Positions 1 through 6,409 of a stretch of 6,409 nucleotides of DNA are shown piece by piece. Below the pieces are notes generated by a model. The model saw nothing but the letters and a program-made list of their open reading frames with translations. It was not told the origin of the DNA and did no database searches. Both the position numbers and the translations under genes were made by a program. The first letter of the stretch is position 1. Every line of letters begins with the position of its first letter. The stretch comes from a virus (taxonomy: Duplodnaviria > Heunggongvirae > Uroviricota > Caudoviricetes), in the IMG/VR virus record IMGVR_UViG_2537561992_000024, positions 1-6,409 of that record. One strand, 5' to 3'.

Positions 1-19
1 CCGAAATGGGAATGAATGA
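1..19 (+). CDS. 3' end of an upstream gene, truncated by the window edge (last codons ...R-N-G-N-E-stop, stop at 17-19); possibly a RusA-like resolvase C-terminus
   Basis: Open frame from the window edge to TGA at 17-19. The stop overlaps the next ATG (16-18) in an ATGA arrangement typical of translational coupling. Only 5 codons are visible, so identity is a guess from lambdoid gene order. Confidence 0.25.
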
Positions 20-156
20 TGTTTGAGTTTTATATGGCAGAACGTCTTCGCCACCGCTGGGGGCGTCTGCGCTTATATCGTTTCCCCGGTTCTGTTTTGA
101 CCGATTACCGAATACTGAAGAATTACGCCAAAACCCTGACAGGAGCAGGAGTATGA
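16..156 (+). CDS. Small 46-aa prophage ORF (MMFEFYMAERLRHRWGRLRLYRFPGSVLTDYRILKNYAKTLTGAGV), YlcG-like, immediately upstream of Q
   Basis: ATG at 16-18 (second ATG at 19-21), stop TGA at 154-156. Not in the ORF track because it is under 60 aa. Its position between a rusA-like gene end and Q matches the DLP12-type nin region. No strong SD is visible. Confidence 0.45.
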   Translation: MMFEFYMAERLRHRWGRLRLYRFPGSVLTDYRILKNYAKTLTGAGV

Positions 157-241
157 AGTCAGAGATAACAATCAACTAATACTGTTTCGTTGATTTTTGC
201 TTGTAATTGGCGTTCTGGTCTGATTTTTGTGGAGTAAGTTG

Positions 242-625
242 ATGCGTGATATTCAGATGGTTCTTGAGCGTTGGGGAGCGTGGGCGGCTAATAATCATGA
301 AGATGTGACCTGGTCGTCCATTGCCGCCGGTTTTAAGGGATTAATTACTTCAAAAGTAAAATCTCGCCCGCAATGTTGTGACGATGACGCGATGATCATT
401 TGCGGGTGCATGGCCCGTCTGAAAAAGAACAACAGCGATTTGCACGATTTATTAGTAGATTATTATGTAGTCGGTATGACATTCATGTCACTGGCAGGTA
501 AGCATTGCTGCTCTGATGGTTATATCGGGAAAAGGTTACAGAAGGCTGAGGGCATAATTGAAGGGATGTTAATGGCATTAGATATCCGGTTAGAGATGGA
601 TATCGTTGTTAATAACTCTAATTAA
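242..625 (+). CDS. Q: Late-gene antiterminator Q (82/21/DLP12-type Q family), 127 aa
   Basis: The track ORF 227..625 begins at TTG. The likely true start is ATG 242-244, preceded by GGAG at 231-234 (7-nt spacing), giving [22 protein letters not shown]... with the Cys-rich CCDDD...CGC and CC motifs. I recognise the sequence as the lambdoid Q (QuuD-like) antiterminator. Confidence 0.9.
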
Positions 626-658
626 TATGCCAATTGTTTACTAAAAATTATTAAGAAT

Positions 659-676
659 GGGGCGTTGAAACGCCCC
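659..676. promoter_or_regulatory. Perfect palindrome GGGGCG-TTGAAA-CGCCCC just downstream of Q; candidate protein-binding or promoter element (TTGAAA could act as a -35)
   Basis: Seen directly: a 6-bp GC stem flanking TTGAAA, followed by an A-rich stretch and -10-like hexamers (TAATAT 690-695, TATAGT 710-715). Function is not established. Confidence 0.3.
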
Positions 677-715
677 CAAAAATAAAGGGTAATATATAAC
701 AGAAGGTTTATATAG

Positions 716-764
716 TTAGAAGCAAGGTTGTGCTTCTAAAGGAAGTGGCTTGAGGGAGCCACTT
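716..764. other. Two consecutive stem-loops (716-739 with a 9-bp stem; 743-764 with an 8-bp stem) between the convergent Q and porin genes
   Basis: Inverted repeats TTAGAAGCA/TGCTTCTAA and AAGTGGCT/AGCCACTT are seen directly. Neither is followed by a U-tract on either strand, so they are not canonical terminators by themselves. Confidence 0.3.
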
Positions 765-804
765 ATATGTTGGGGAGGCAAAGCCTCCCACAACATATGT
801 TTTA
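765..804 (+). terminator. Strong intrinsic terminator (15-bp GC-rich stem with one bulge, AAA loop, then GTTTT); candidate late terminator (tR'-like), also lying just 3' of the porin gene
   Basis: ATATGTTGGGGAGGC-AAA-GCCTCCCACAACATAT followed by GTTTT at 799-803. The stem plus T-tract is canonical on the plus strand. On the minus strand the hairpin sits 10 nt after the porin stop but lacks a U-tract. Confidence 0.6.
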
Positions 805-813
805 GTAATCAAA

Positions 814-1881
814 TTAGAACTGGTAAACCATACCTACAGCAACGATATCATCGGTAGCAACGCCAGATGCTTTCGTGAAATCGCTCTTATCAATCAGGTT
901 GATTTTGTAGTCAACAAAAGTGGACATATTTTTGTTGAAGTAATAGGTTGCACCTACATCAATATATTCAACCAGGTCCTGATCACCCCAAGCACCCAAG
1001 TCTTTCCCTTTAGATTGCAGATAAGCAACGGACGGACGCAGACCGAAGTCGAACTGATATTGTGCAACTACTTCGAAGTTTTGTGCTTTGTTGGCAATAT
1101 GGTTTTTACCAAAAACAGTCATGTTTTGGGTTTCAGAATAGGTAGTAGCCAGATAGATGTTGTTCGCATCATATTTCAGACCAGCTGCCCATACTTCAGC
1201 ATTTTGACCAGATGCATTCAGGCTGTTGTTACCGTAGATAACCTGATTATTAGTGCGATCAGATTTAGCATAGGTTGCACCTACGCCGAAACCTTCATAC
1301 TCATAAGTAGTGGAGAAACCGAAACCATCACCATTAGCTTGAGTTACGTCAGTACGGTCATTTTTACCCTGATACTGAGCAGCAAAGTTCAGACCATCAA
1401 CCAGACCAAAGAAGTCATTGTTACGATAAGTTGCAACACCTGTGGTGCGACCAGTCATGAATACATCTGTTTGGGTCCAGGTATCGCCACCGAATTCTGG
1501 CAGAACGTCGGTCCATGCACCAATATCGTATGCTACACCGTAGTTACGGCCATAATCGATGGAGCCGTAGTCACCGAATTTCAGGCCAGCGAAGGCAAGA
1601 CGGGTTTTATCTTTGGAGGAACCTTGAGATTCAGCGCGGTTGCCTTTGAATTCATATTCCCACTGACCGAAACCAGTCAGTTGATCGTTGATTTGGGTTT
1701 CACCTTTGAAGCCAAGACGGGCATAAGTAGTATCACCATCATCTGCATCATTAGAGGAGAAGTAGTGCTTAGCATTAACTTTCCCGTACAGATCCAGCTT
1801 GTTACTGTCTTTATTATAAATTTCAGCTGCCTGAGCAGACATCGCCATCAGTACTGATGCAGCTACAGCAGAAATTGCCAC
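814..1881 (-). CDS. nmpC: General diffusion porin of the OmpC/OmpF/PhoE family, NmpC/Lc/OmpD-type lysogenic-conversion porin; 16-strand beta-barrel with C-terminal ...VAVGMVYQF
   Basis: The 355-aa ORF has a signal-peptide-like N-terminus ending AQA followed by [16 protein letters not shown], the conserved porin motifs ([35 protein letters not shown]), and a C-terminal Phe. The track ORF starts at GTG 1879-1881 with no SD. An SD-linked ATG at 1893-1895 is out of frame by one base (see findings). Confidence 0.9.
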
Positions 1882-2099
1882 TGTTAATTTTTCATCGTGA
1901 GCCCTTTTTTTGAACTATTATTAAAAAATGATGTCACTGCGCGATAAATATTCATCTAATCAATGTGATTATTTCAAGATGTAAGTTTTGGTTTCTCATT
2001 TGATTTGTGAAGTAGATCTCTATTTTTATCTGAACTTTTTCTATCGAATCCTATTCATGGCTCTTGGCTGAATAAAAATAAATCTATTAGCCAATTTAT

Positions 2100-2140
2100 A
2101 TTAATGGCTGTTATTTATAAGTGCCCTATAATTTGAAGGT
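2100..2140. promoter_or_regulatory. AT-rich block with a perfect TATAAT (2127-2132, plus strand) and a TTGAAC...TTATAAAT arrangement on the minus strand; candidate promoter(s) for the late/lysis transcript and/or the porin
   Basis: Hexamers are seen directly, but no good -35 lies 17 bp upstream of the plus-strand TATAAT. Strand and function are unresolved. Confidence 0.2.
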
Positions 2141-2321
2141 TCAATTTAAATCGGCTAAAAATAACGCTGGAAATTATTTGTTGGTTATTTGTTGAGATTT
2201 GTTTATGTATTTGTAGTGGTGTTTTCAATACTCGGTAGCATTCTCGCAAATATCATTTAGTGGTTTACGTACGTAAAAAATTGGTTATGCTGTTAAGAGT
2301 GGTTACTTCGTCACACAGCTT

Positions 2322-2350
2322 AAACCCGCCGTCGAGCGGGTTTTTCCATT
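2322..2350 (+). terminator. Intrinsic terminator about 130 bp upstream of the holin gene (stem AAACCCGC/GCGGGTTT, loop CGTCGA, then TTTTTCCATTTTTT)
   Basis: A GC-rich stem and U-tract are seen directly. Its placement just upstream of S resembles lambda tR'. Confidence 0.5.
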
Positions 2351-2482
2351 TTTTGAGTCTCGATATTAGCTGATAACCCAATACCTGAGTTATTCACTGA
2401 CTCCGAGTCTGTTACGTTTCTGCTTTTTTGCGATACGTTGTATTCCCTCAATTTACACCCGCTTTGTCTGCGAGGTGGGGTT

Positions 2483-2698
2483 ATGAAATCCATGGATAAG
2501 TTAACAACGGGTGTCGCCTATGGCACCTCAGCAGGTAGTGCCGGTTACTGGTTTTTACAGCTGCTCGATAAAGTCACGCCCTCACAGTGGGCAGCAATAG
2601 GTGTGCTGGGTAGCCTGGTATTTGGCCTGCTGACGTACCTGACAAACCTTTATTTCAAGATTAAAGAAGATAAGCGCAAGGCTGCGAGAGGTGAATAA
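2483..2698 (+). CDS. S: Class II holin / pinholin (S21-type) with dual-start motif MKSM (antiholin from M1, holin from M4), 71 aa
   Basis: ATG at 2483 is preceded by GAGGTG at 2472-2477, with a second in-frame ATG at 2492. The product [71 protein letters not shown] has two TMDs and a charged C-terminus. The track ORF 2438..2698 starts at an upstream ATG with no SD. The stop overlaps the next gene's ATG. Confidence 0.9.
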
Positions 2699-3195
2699 TG
2701 CCTCCATCATTACGAAAAGCCGTTGCTGCTGCTATTGGTGGCGGAGCAATTGCTATAGCATCAGTGTTAATCACTGGCCCAAGTGGTAACGATGGTCTGG
2801 AAGGTGTCAGCTACATACCATACAAAGATATTGTTGGTGTATGGACTGTATGTCACGGGCATACAGGAAAAGACATCATGCTCGGTAAAACGTATACCAA
2901 AGCAGAATGCAAAGCACTCTTGAATAAAGACCTTGCCACTGTCGCCAGACAAATTAACCCGTACATCGAAGTCGATATACCGGAAACAACGCGCGGCGCT
3001 CTTTACTCATTCGTTTACAACGTGGGTGCTGGCAATTTCAGAACATCGACGCTTCTTCGCAAAATAAACCAGGGCGATATCAAAGGCGCATGTGATCAGC
3101 TACGTCGCTGGACATATGCTGGCGGTAAGCAATGGAAAGGTCTCATGACTCGTCGTGAGATTGAGCGTGAAATCTGTTTGTGGGGTCAGCAATGA
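2698..3195 (+). CDS. R: SAR endolysin (T4-lysozyme-like muramidase, R21-type) with an N-terminal signal-anchor-release domain, 165 aa
   Basis: The start overlaps the holin stop (TAATG). The Gly/Ala-rich weak [23 protein letters not shown] is followed by the catalytic triad positions E35, D44 and T50 in [18 protein letters not shown]. Confidence 0.92.
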
Positions 3196-3653
3196 ACAGA
3201 GTAACCGCGATTATCTCCGCTCTGGTTATCTGCATCATCGTCTGCCTGTCATGGGCTGTTAATCATTACCGTGATAACGCCATTACCTACAAAGCCCAGC
3301 GCGACAAAAATGCCAGAGAACTGAAGCTGGCGAACGCGGCAATTACTGACATGCAGATGCGTCAGCGTGATGTTGCTGCGCTCGATGCAAAACACACGAA
3401 GGAGTTAGCTGATGCGAAAGCTGAAAATGATGCTCTGCGTGATGATGTTGCCGCTGGTCGTCGTCGGTTGCACATCAAAGCAGTCTGCCAGTCAGTGCGT
3501 GAAGCCACCACCGCCTCCGGCGTGGATAATGCAGCCTCCCCCCGACTGGCAGACACCGCTGAACGGGATTATTTCACCCTCAGAGAGAGGCTGATCACTA
3601 TGCAAAAACAACTGGAAGGAACCCAGACGTATATTAATGAGCAGTGCAGATAG
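3192..3653 (+). CDS. Rz: Rz inner-membrane spanin (i-spanin), 153 aa
   Basis: ATG 3192-3194 overlaps the endolysin stop (ATGA). The product has an N-terminal TMD ([19 protein letters not shown]) and a coiled-coil periplasmic domain, and is lambda-Rz-like. The track ORF starts at an upstream GTG. Confidence 0.9.
3412..3594 (+). CDS. Rz1: Rz1 outer-membrane lipoprotein spanin (o-spanin), 60 aa, embedded in the +1 frame of Rz
   Basis: GGAG at 3401-3404 sits 7 nt before ATG 3412. The product has a lipobox (LVVVGC) and a proline-rich mature region ([16 protein letters not shown]), and lies entirely inside Rz in another frame. Confidence 0.88.
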
Positions 3654-3656
3654 AGC

Positions 3657-3674
3657 TGCCCATATCGATGGGCA
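3657..3674. terminator. Short hairpin (TGCCCAT-ATCG-ATGGGCA) between the convergent Rz and bor stops; possible weak bidirectional terminator
   Basis: A 7-bp stem with a 4-nt loop is seen directly. No U-tract on either side, so confidence is low. Confidence 0.25.
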
Positions 3675-3684
3675 ACTCATGCAA

Positions 3685-3978
3685 TTATTGTGAGCAATAC
3701 ACACGCGCTTCCAGCGGAGTATAAATGCCTAAAGTAATAAAACCGAGCAATCCATTTACGAATGTTTGCTGGGTTTCTGTTTTAACAACATTTTCTGCGC
3801 CGCCACAAATTTTGGCTGCATCAACAGTTTTCTCCTGTCCAATTCCCGAAACGAAGAAGTGATGGGTGATGGTTTCCTTTGGTGTTACTGCTGTCGGTTT
3901 GTTTCCAACAGTAAACGTCTGTTGAGCACATCCTGTAATAAGCATTGCCAGAGCGGCAGAAAACAACATTTTTTTCAT
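3685..3978 (-). CDS. bor: Bor outer-membrane lipoprotein (serum-resistance lysogenic-conversion protein, Iss family), 97 aa
   Basis: ATG at 3978..3976 is preceded by AGGA. The product MKKMLFSAALAMLITGCAQQTFTV...YTPLEARVYCSQ has a lipobox (LITGC). The track ORF 3685..4026 starts 16 codons upstream at an ATG with no SD. Confidence 0.9.
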   Translation of the reverse strand: MKKMLFSAALAMLITGCAQQTFTVGNKPTAVTPKETITHHFFVSGIGQEKTVDAAKICGGAENVVKTETQQTFVNGLLGFITLGIYTPLEARVYCSQ

Positions 3979-4274
3979 CTTATTATCCTGCATTGTTAAA
4001 AACGGCAGAATCCTATGTGACAACAATTAAACGATAGTTAAATGGATTGATGAAAATTAAAACTATATAGGTGGATGCTCAGCCTATTGGAGGAGGGGGG
4101 CACTCAGAATCCTGTGGAATGAAATAAACCGCTCTATCTGTCCATTACCCTTTTAGCTGCGCTGTATCGTCGCCGTATTCCCGCATTAACCATGACCGTA
4201 GCCCGACGGGGAATTCCTTCTGCGTGAGTGTGCGGGAATAATCAAAAACGATGCACACCGGGTTTTACTGTGCT

Positions 4275-4277
4275 GAC
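4275..4277. repeat. Left copy of the 3-bp target-site duplication (GAC) flanking the IS element
   Basis: GAC lies immediately outside the left terminal inverted repeat, and an identical GAC lies immediately outside the right one (5593-5595). Confidence 0.7.
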
Positions 4278-4318
4278 TGAACCGCCCCGGGTTCCTGGAG
4301 AGTGTTTTATCTGTGAAC

Positions 4319-5206
4319 TCAGGCTGCCAGATCATCGTTTCCGATGGAAGCATAATAAGCTTTTTCTGCTTCTGCCGGAGGAGTATGGCCCAGCCTTCCC
4401 AGCAATCGTCGATTGTTATACCAGTCCACCCACGTTAGTGTGGCCAGTTCCACTTCTGCACGGTTTTTCCAGCTCTTACGGTGTATTACCTCCGCTTTGT
4501 AAAGACCATTGATGCTCTCAGCCATCGCGTTGTCATACGAGTCACCTGTACTCCCTGTTGATGCCAGCAATCCGGCTTCTTTTAGTCGCTCCGTATAGGC
4601 CAGTGACACATACTGAGAACCTTTATCACTGTGATGGACTGTGCCGGACGGCCGACGGGCCCACAACGCCTGCTCCAGTGCATCCAGCACGAATGTCGTT
4701 TCCATAGACGATGAGACTCGCCACCCCACGATACATCCGGCAAACACATCAATGATGAACGCCACACAGACGAAGCCCTGCCATGTGCTGACGTAAGTAA
4801 AATCAGCCACCCACAGCTGGTCAGGACGTTCTGCCACGAACTGACGGTTTACGCGGTCGCCTGCGGAAACGGCTTTCCGGCTGACGGTAGTACGGACCTT
4901 TTTACCCCGGAGAACACCGGCAAGTCCCATAACCGCCATGAGGCGCGCCACTGTACATCTGGCCACCCTGATACCTTCGCGTAACAACTGGCGCCAGACT
5001 TTACGCACACCGTACACCTGATGATTTTCATCGTATACGCGCTGTATCTCTCTCTTCAGCCAGTCATCGCGCTGAGCACGGGCACTGCGTTTATCAGGAT
5101 GATGTCGCTGTTGCTGACAGTGGTAATACGTTGACGGGGCAATATGCAGCTCACTGCATACCGGTCCGACCCCGTACTGCTCACGCAGCTTATCCAGCAG
5201 TGGCAT
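4319..5206 (-). CDS. IS3-family transposase OrfB (DDE/RNase-H-fold catalytic domain), 295 aa, apparently intact
   Basis: Continuous ORF carrying the catalytic residues in context: WVADFTYV (D), HHSDKGSQY (D) and DNAMAESINGLYKAE (E). I recognise it as IS629-type OrfB. Confidence 0.9.
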   Translation of the reverse strand: MPLLDKLREQYGVGPVCSELHIAPSTYYHCQQQRHHPDKRSARAQRDDWLKREIQRVYDENHQVYGVRKVWRQLLREGIRVARCTVARLMAVMGLAGVLRGKKVRTTVSRKAVSAGDRVNRQFVAERPDQLWVADFTYVSTWQGFVCVAFIIDVFAGCIVGWRVSSSMETTFVLDALEQALWARRPSGTVHHSDKGSQYVSLAYTERLKEAGLLASTGSTGDSYDNAMAESINGLYKAEVIHRKSWKNRAEVELATLTWVDWYNNRRLLGRLGHTPPAEAEKAYYASIGNDDLAA

Positions 5207-5538
5207 TATTTTTTCCAGAGGCGGTCGAACTCCGCCTTCGCAAAATAAGCGGAAGCCTGGCGAAGGATATCGTTACTGCGGCGCAGTTCACGATTTTCAC
5301 GTTCCAGCTCTTTTCAGACGCTGACGTTCAGCGCTGGTGAGCCCCACCATCACCGCCCCCCGGTATCCCCGCTCCATGCTGGCGAACCCAGACACGCAGG
5401 GTCTCCGGCGTACAGCCAATCTTTGGGGCAATGGAACAAATTGCCGCCCACTGTGAGTCATATTCATCCTGACTTTCCAGAACCATACGAATCGCCCGCT
5501 GACGGACTTACGGGGGAAAAACGAGTATTTTTAGTCAT
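5206..5538 (-). pseudogene. IS3-family OrfA (HTH plus leucine-zipper transposase N-terminal module), disrupted by multiple single-base insertions
   Basis: ATG at 5538..5536 with AAGAGG 7 nt upstream opens MTKNTRFSP, then stops after 24 codons. The OrfA motifs continue in other frames: [44 protein letters not shown] (+1), [10 protein letters not shown] (+2), and ELERENRELRRSNDILRQASAYFAKAEFDRLWKK-stop (back in frame 0). Confidence 0.75.
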
Positions 5539-5592
5539 CCTGTTTACCTCTTTCTCAGGGAGTTTAGTCTCCAGGATTTCCGGGGCGGTTCA

Positions 5593-5595
5593 GAC
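5593..5595. repeat. Right copy of the 3-bp target-site duplication (GAC)
   Basis: See the left copy at 4275-4277. Confidence 0.7.
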
Positions 5596-5655
5596 AGACG
5601 CAGGGTTACCCTCATAGTCGCTTTTCCGGTGCGATGGTGGAAGAAACCGGGATGT

Positions 5656-5850
5656 TTATTCATCATCACTTTGGATTGATGTATATGCTCTCTTTTCTGA
5701 CGTTAGTCTCCGACGGCAGGCTTCAATGACCCAGGCTGAGAAATTCCCAGACCCTTTTTGCTCAAGAGCGATGTTAATTTGTTCAATCATTTGGTTAGGA
5801 AAGCGGATGTTGCGGGTTGTTGTTCTGCGGGTTTTGTTCTTCGTTGACAT
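5656..5850 (-). CDS. Small basic protein (64 aa) with a ribbon-helix-helix-like pattern (RNIRFP strand, then helices NQMIEQINIALEQ and NFSAWVIEACRRRL); putative DNA-binding protein of the cos-proximal region (YlcI/DUF3950-like)
   Basis: ATG at 5850..5848 on the minus strand gives MSTKNKTRRTTTRNIRFPNQMIEQINIALEQKGSGNFSAWVIEACRRRLTSEKRAYTSIQSDDE. The fold is inferred from the sequence pattern only. Confidence 0.6.
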   Translation of the reverse strand: MSTKNKTRRTTTRNIRFPNQMIEQINIALEQKGSGNFSAWVIEACRRRLTSEKRAYTSIQSDDE

Positions 5851-6050
5851 GAGGTTGCCCCGTATTCAGTGTCGCTGATTTGTATTGTCTGAAGTTGTTT
5901 TTACGTTAAGTTGATGCAGATCAATTAATACGATACCTGCGTCATAATTGATTATTTGACGTGGTTTGATGGCGTAGATGCACGTTGTGACATATAGATG
6001 ATAATTATTATTCATTTTGCGGGTCCTTTCCGGCGATCCGACAGGTTACG

Positions 6051-6062
6051 GGGCGGCGACCT
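6051..6062 (+). other. cosN: the 12-nt cohesive-end sequence GGGCGGCGACCT (identical to phage lambda), with lambda-like flanks (ACAGGTTACG upstream; CGCGGGTTTTCGCTATTTATGAAAATTTTCCGG downstream)
   Basis: I recognise an exact match to the lambda cohesive-end sequence and its immediate flanks. It sits between the right-arm genes and a Nu1-like gene, as in lambda. Confidence 0.85.
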
Positions 6063-6100
6063 CGCGGGTTTTCGCTATTTATGAAAATTTTCCGGGATCC

Positions 6101-6111
6101 ATGTCCGGTTT
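6101..6111. repeat. cosB R3-like terminase-binding repeat (ATGTCCGGTTT), inverted relative to the two downstream copies
   Basis: Reverse complement of the AAACCGGACAT core repeated at 6157-6169 and 6187-6199. Confidence 0.5.
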
Positions 6112-6156
6112 CTCTTCAAGTTAACTATATGAAAAATATAAAAACAGGTCTTCTGT

Positions 6157-6169
6157 GAACCGGACATGA
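6157..6169. repeat. cosB R2-like repeat (GAACCGGACATGA)
   Basis: Direct repeat of the 6187-6199 copy, separated from the R3-like copy by an A/T-rich spacer (a possible IHF-bend region). Confidence 0.5.
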
Positions 6170-6186
6170 ACAAAAAATAGATATGT

Positions 6187-6199
6187 AAACCGGACATGA
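6187..6199. repeat. cosB R1-like repeat (AAACCGGACATGA), part of the local palindrome AAACCGG-ACATGA-CCGGTTT
   Basis: Seen directly. It lies about 45 bp upstream of the terminase small-subunit start. Confidence 0.5.
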
Positions 6200-6245
6200 C
6201 CGGTTTTGTTGTGATTGTGAGGTGAGAGTTTTTGCGAGGTGAGGA

Positions 6246-6409
6246 GTGGCTACGCAGACTGAAGTTGCCAGGCATTTAAGTCTGACCGATCGCCAGCTTC
6301 GCAGATTGCAGAAATTGCCGGGTGCCCCGATATCAAATAAGCGAGGGCAACTGGATCTGGATGCCTGGCGCGATTTTTACATATCGTATCTGAGGAGAAG
6401 TAAAAACGA
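6246..6409 (+). CDS. Terminase small subunit (Nu1-like, N-terminal winged-HTH), 5' part only; continues beyond the window
   Basis: GTG 6246 is preceded by GAGG at 6236-6239 and an in-frame stop at 6240-6242. The product (M)ATQTEVARHLSLTDRQLRRLQKLPGAPISNKRGQLDLDAWRDFYISYLRRSKN... resembles the lambda Nu1 N-terminus in pattern and sits directly after cosB. Confidence 0.6.
   Translation, partial: MATQTEVARHLSLTDRQLRRLQKLPGAPISNKRGQLDLDAWRDFYISYLRRSKN

Follow-up and report, generated by a model that had tools for sequence, protein, structure and literature searches.

IS629/IS1203 elements are found in the genomes of EHEC O157, O26, and O111 strains and in Stx phages. The insertion sequence (IS) described here has the same inverted repeats (IRs) as these elements, the same 3-bp target-site duplication (TSD), and the same orfA/orfB layout, and it also shares with them the A6 run and ALIL pseudoknot at the gene overlap as well as the DDE catalytic domain. 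It differs from them in two respects: (i) six extra bases in orfA occur in the window record only, and (ii) its orfB is a mosaic of known variants with a few private changes (Y147C). The window, i.e., the whole 6,409-nt stretch of DNA that was analyzed, represents the late region of a DLP12-like lambdoid prophage. In the DLP12-like prophages of strains 98E11 and E2865, the insertion site, the orientation, and the neighboring genes (quuD, porin, essD, rrrD, rzpD, bor/iss, IS, and ylcI) are as in the window, and the prophage flanks are 99.9% identical to those of the window. Unlike the window record, both strains have a continuous orfA.

Over 100% of its length, the IS is 97.3 to 98.6% identical at the nucleotide level to copies that bear the annotation IS3-like element IS1203 family or IS629, the upper value being reached with annotated copies in complete E. 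coli genomes. This full-length identity bears out an earlier reading made from the DNA letters only (here, the sequence-only reading), in which the element was called IS629-like and its 1315 bp were set against a canonical 1310 bp. The reference copies are 1310 and 1309 nt long, and the A-run at the right end, which is one A shorter than in the 1310-nt copies, is common to the window and EH031 IS1203. The left repeat (IRL) is TGAACCGCCCCGGAAATCCTGGAGA and the right repeat (IRR) is TGAACCGCCCCGGGTTCCTGGAGA; they are imperfect, have 5'-TG...CA-3' ends, and both match those of the reference copies. Phages PhiR34_1 and Turner and a second prophage of E2865 contain the empty site, TTTTACTGTGCTGACAGACGCAGG. 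All of the tested hallmarks of the IS3 family (IS629/IS1203 group) were found, except a continuous orfA.

Because the IRs, the 3-bp TSD, and the ALIL pseudoknot are intact and the orfB variation is mostly synonymous, an old relic copy is ruled out, and the window IS is an ordinary, recently inserted, and therefore young IS629/IS1203 copy. A separate insertion event at the same site is also ruled out, since the junctions and the TSD are identical to those of O26-lineage loci, and so is a divergent form of the IS whose orfA differs naturally, since repair of the gene yields 100% of the reference OrfA. The features of the window are listed in Table 1.

Table 1. Positions of genes, element parts, and single-nucleotide indels in the window
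Feature	Position	Strand	Remark
Homopolymer undercall G4->G3	8-10	+	Private
ylcG	about 16-156		
Antiterminator quuD	227/242-625		
Prophage porin (OmpC/NmpC-like), open frame	814-1881	-	
Homopolymer undercall T6->T5	1888-1892	+	Private; equals A6->A5, porin codons 2-3
Homopolymer undercall T8->T7	1905-1911	+	Private; upstream of porin gene
Holin essD, lysozyme rrrD, spanin rzpD with embedded Rz1-like frame	2438-3653		
bor/iss	3685-3978/4026	-	
TSD GAC, copy 1	4275-4277	+	
IS629/IS1203-type insertion sequence (IS3 family)	4278-5592	-	1315 nt in record = 1309 + six inserted bases
Right end with terminal inverted repeat	4278-4317	-	Reverse complement TGAACCGCCCCGGGTTCCTGGAGAGTG...; from alignment to references
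orfB	4319-5206	-	295 aa, DDE transposase catalytic part; open
ALIL pseudoknot RF01497	5135-5251	-	-1 frameshift stimulator at orfA/orfB overlap with A6 run; intact
orfA	5206-5538	-	HTH_Tnp_1 transposase N-terminal protein; broken by six 1-nt insertions
AAA->AAAA	5311-5314	-	From alignment
GGG->GGGG	5342-5345	-	From alignment
GGGGG->GGGGGG (G5->G6)	5356-5361	-	From alignment
GGG->GGGG	5367-5370	-	From alignment
G->GG	5374-5375	-	CATGAGC -> CATGGAGC; from alignment
Inserted T (A on + strand)	5510	-	After TTTTTCCCCCG, CCCCCG[T]AAG; sole insertion not extending a run
Left end with terminal inverted repeat	5553-5592	-	TGAACCGCCCCGGAAATCCTGGAGACT...; same as references
TSD GAC, copy 2	5593-5595	+	
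ylcI	5656-5850	-	
Overcall T->TT	6011-6012	+	Private; 560-nt query matched 559 nt at 99.5% in listed records
Start of terminase small-subunit region	right of ylcI		

The minus strand of the element was aligned to three copies annotated as intact programmed-frameshift transposases, namely, those of O111:H8 8E and O157:H7 ECP19-598 (both 1310 nt) and EH031 IS1203 (1309 nt). Relative to all three, orfA of the window IS has exactly six 1-nt insertions, five of which extend a run, and no deleted base. Seen on the plus strand, four of the six are extra C's within 5342-5374, and the alignment thereby confirms both the number and the position given in the sequence-only reading. Translation likewise agrees with the earlier frame analysis: starting from the ATG at 5538, frame 0 terminates after 24 codons, and the OrfA motifs resurface in frames 1, 2, 0, 1, 2, and 0 in turn. 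The net shift of +6 brings the 3' part of the gene and the frameshift site back into frame 0.

Once the six bases are taken out, orfA encodes the 108-aa reference OrfA with zero amino-acid changes. After this repair, the first 420 nt of the element retain two nucleotide polymorphisms, of which one also occurs in EH031 and the other in each of the three references; the stretch thus has 6 insertions, 0 deletions, and 0 private substitutions. As written, the record contains no continuous orfA encoding an HTH_Tnp_1 protein, and the recorded OrfA fragments match no Pfam family, whereas the repaired OrfA matches PF01527 at 47 bits. We attribute the discontinuity to sequence error and do not regard the element itself as being at fault. 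An exact-protein match to a 52-aa fragment of orfA exists on the source contig alone.

The second gene of the element is undisrupted. The 295-aa frame of orfB is open throughout its 888 nt, as had been read from the letters, and its 32 runs of at least 3 bases show no indel. The product matches rve (PF00665; 90 bits), HTH_21 (65 bits), and rve_3 (45 bits), and the OrfB motifs WVADFTY, HSDKGSQY, and AESINGLYKAE are all found; when OrfA is conceptually repaired and fused to OrfB, the OrfAB product reaches 358 bits with NF033516 (IS3 family transposase; cutoff, 160). The ALIL pseudoknot is matched over its full length (1-117) with 120.3 bits versus a gathering score of 50, and it is annotated at the equivalent place in the reference copies. 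With respect to the 3' portion of orfA, orfB is read in the -1 frame, and a frameshift at the overlap is predicted. Comparison of orfB with O111 8E gives nine synonymous and two nonsynonymous differences, and comparison with O157 380-94 gives four and three, respectively. These differences represent variation among functional copies and not decay.

Among the 5,426 complete E. coli genomes, none has a copy that exceeds 98.9% identity for orfB together with the right end, and exact-protein look-up located the OrfB sequence on the source contig alone. The IS body is mosaic, with nine mostly synonymous differences from the O111/O157 reference copies at 4544-4652 (codons 185-221); part of this patch is common to the copy in O157:H7 380-94. 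The Y147C change in OrfB (4767) is present in none of the four copies compared.

The locus itself is common. About 130 complete genomes match the window at a coverage of at least 80%, with identities of ~99.3 to 99.4% for window positions 1 to 6095, and the matches listed belong largely to the O26/O111:H11 lineage. In the two loci that were read (98E11 and E2865), the IS is located at the same site and is annotated as an intact programmed-frameshift transposase. The window IS body differs from these two at 24 to 31 substitution sites, and the two also differ from each other inside the IS: seven positions are different (locus 6476-6656) between these closely related genomes, whose flanks are identical. 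IS copies may thus have undergone gene conversion or have been mixed during assembly. In related strains, the median number of IS places per genome is 4, and the maximum is 52.

The orfA allele of the window was not encountered elsewhere. The allele counts are based on 5,426 complete E. coli genomes, in which ~8,200 to 22,700 IS copies were matched. When a 95-nt sequence containing the cluster of five insertions was used as BLAST query, complete E. coli genomes yielded 8,201 matched places, plasmids 1,096, and phages 120; most commonly, the identity was 94.7% (five gaps), the highest value was 95.8%, and no match reached 99%. With a 91-nt query for the inserted T, none of 22,679 places in complete E. 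coli genomes matched without a gap, the best identity of 98.9% corresponding to one gap. Exact scans gave the same result: a 43-mer spanning the cluster is absent from species-representative genomes, viral contigs, and metagenome contigs, a 26-mer across the inserted T is absent from species-representative genomes, and a 28-mer across three of the G insertions is absent from metagenome contigs. A reference orfA with the nucleotide sequence of the window is thus carried by none of the E. coli genomes, plasmids, and phages searched.

Two finished records share some of these changes. The PNUSAE008406 chromosome has a +1 change at a G3 run (G3->G4, equivalent to 5367-5370) and is annotated as frameshifted (L009, 1501-1591), and the plasmid p1ColV5155 of IMT5155 has G3->G4 and G5->G6 at the same orfA runs and is also annotated as frameshifted (L010, 1501-1592). 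These copies, flagged by PGAP, have one or two changes versus six in the window, and neither has the window's combination. Because two finished records carry +1 changes in the same runs, indels recur at these G-runs, either through polymerase errors in vivo or through errors in sequencing.

The remainder of the contig also contains private differences. The record is an entire draft WGS contig (ADUN01000159.1; 6409 bp) of assembly GCA_000188755.2. Its ~4.8 kb outside the IS differ from the 98E11 and E2865 loci by two substitutions (3393 and 3488) and four 1-nt indels, all four of which are changes in homopolymer length and private with respect to three to five comparators each; between 98E11 and E2865, only substitutions occur in the compared region, as derived from the two difference lists. 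One of the four affects the porin gene. The run at 1888-1892 has a length of 6 in 98E11, E2865, L012, and L014 and of 5 in the window, so that the ATG at 1893-1895 has A5 behind it in place of A6 and the frame from this true start ends at MKN*; for this reason, the porin open frame seems to begin at a downstream GTG. Addition of one A restores the porin N terminus.

Over its whole length, the contig shows ten private indels, of which nine are run-length changes, versus two private substitutions outside the IS. Six of the ten indels are located in orfA, i.e., within 333 of 6409 nt (binomial P of ~3e-6), and five are located within 64 nt (P of ~2e-8). In the sequence-only reading, the intact orfB was taken to mean that the sequence is not uniformly noisy. 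The noise is indeed nonuniform, being clustered, but it extends beyond the IS, as the four homopolymer indels in the flanks demonstrate.

Several further observations concern the flanks. The two substitutions in rzpD are both private T->C changes; one of them changes Rz (Y68H), and the other is silent in Rz (C99) but causes V26A in the Rz1-like frame embedded at 3412-3594. The RzpD protein of the window is found on the source contig alone in the look-up collection. At 6095, the right end of the contig departs from the O26-lineage DLP12-like locus (compared with the 98E11 locus from 7592 onward), and 6096-6409 follows the terminase small-subunit region of the second E2865 lambdoid prophage (L013, 1747-2059). 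This second prophage shares ~3 kb (rrrD to ylcI) with the first, without the IS, and positions 3032-6409 of the window minus the IS are within five differences of it. The switch at 6095 reflects either genuine mosaicism between prophages or the joining of a contig at a repeat.

We conclude, with a probability of about 88%, that the six insertions in orfA stem from erroneous base calling or consensus building in a draft contig and are not mutations of the organism. Six insertions without any deletion or substitution in ~200 nt are a pyrosequencing-type or read-tail error profile and not that of neutral decay. As would be typical of an artifact, this one record alone has the differences, which are missing from independent sequences of the locus, and an indel-dominated, homopolymer-linked spectrum is also seen elsewhere in the record. 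Localized homopolymer-type assembly errors had been one of two alternatives offered by the sequence-only reading, and it is this one that is favored by the private homopolymer indels, the near absence of private substitutions, and the draft status of the contig.

Such errors would have arisen during sequencing or assembly as run-length overcalls plus one spurious single base, gathered where read support was locally poor. Poor read support is plausible here, as the contig sits on repeats (a multicopy IS within a ~3-kb segment common to two prophages). The real genome would then be expected to have an intact 108-aa orfA, and OrfAB would be made by -1 frameshifting at the A6 run, with the ALIL pseudoknot stimulating it. 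The host would be an E. coli strain of the O26/O111:H11 lineage carrying the IS in the late region of its DLP12-like lambdoid prophage.

The probable sequencing platform is consistent with these errors. The genome with the neighboring prefix ADUS (strain RN587/1) was sequenced at IGS Maryland using 454 Titanium with 8-kb paired ends and Celera assembly (PMC3715677), and we infer that ADUN belongs to the same batch and platform (454); a literature search returned no paper naming ADUN00000000 or GCA_000188755. Errors of 454 Titanium are mostly insertions and deletions that are tied to homopolymers and increase toward read ends, and they are strongly nonrandom by position and can exceed 50% at particular positions (PMC3116506). 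The private differences of the window resemble 454 draft-assembly errors in that they are indel dominated, with insertions prevailing in the cluster and positions being strongly nonrandom.

However, several of the affected runs are short (1 to 3 nt), which implies very low or poor local read support in the consensus. Consensus errors at runs of 1 to 3 bases are unusual at normal coverage. The much higher density of insertions in orfA than elsewhere in the contig, given above, is a point against an artifact, as is the clean orfB; therefore, a local cause, namely, a dip in read support over ~5300-5520, must be assumed. Real slippage is possible at those G-runs that show +1 changes in two other records.

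If all six mutations were genuine, the window would contain a decayed copy that makes neither OrfA nor OrfAB and that, with its ends intact, is movable only in trans via other IS629 copies. This was the other alternative of the sequence-only reading, and we consider it very improbable. It requires six independent +1 events in ~200 nt without a deletion or a private substitution, although there is no selection for the next five once the first frameshift has occurred. The insertions are tightly clustered in the record, and orfB, the IRs, and the pseudoknot are intact, as they might be in such a copy, but the flanks are only two substitutions in ~4.8 kb (~0.04%) away from strains with an intact copy. 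Similarly, frameshifted IS629 copies do exist in finished genomes, including those with +1 at two of the same G-runs, but the allele of the window is missing from thousands of IS copies, and the record that holds it is a draft contig with four other private homopolymer indels, one of which breaks a conserved porin gene. A burst of clustered +1 slippage in the G-runs that wrecked orfA of a young IS629 copy and left orfB, the frameshift signal, and the ends intact is just as improbable. The least probable case is a mixed one, in which one or two of the G-runs truly expanded by slippage at recurrent hot spots and the remaining insertions are errors, with orfA still being defective: +1 changes are found in the finished records of PNUSAE008406 (G3->G4) and IMT5155 p1ColV5155 (G3->G4 and G5->G6), but these records may hold run-length errors themselves, nothing in the window sets these two insertions apart from the other four, and the syntenic copies that were read have short runs.

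Neither the element nor its insertion site is new, as both occur in many complete genomes. The clustered breakage of orfA is neither novel nor surprising because it is most likely not a real feature. If the insertions were real, the element would be a nonautonomous copy mobilizable in trans and would hint at a localized insertion-prone mutational process; even then, a defective IS copy that depends on help in trans would be modestly interesting. With base-calling errors as the preferred explanation, our findings call for caution: draft-era contigs on repeats can hold clustered run-length errors that mimic pseudogenization of mobile elements, and in this contig, a private homopolymer indel likewise breaks a second gene, the porin gene. 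If copies of this kind were scored as decayed IS elements or as pseudogenes, the resulting figures for IS activity and for gene decay in EHEC/EPEC lineages would be biased.
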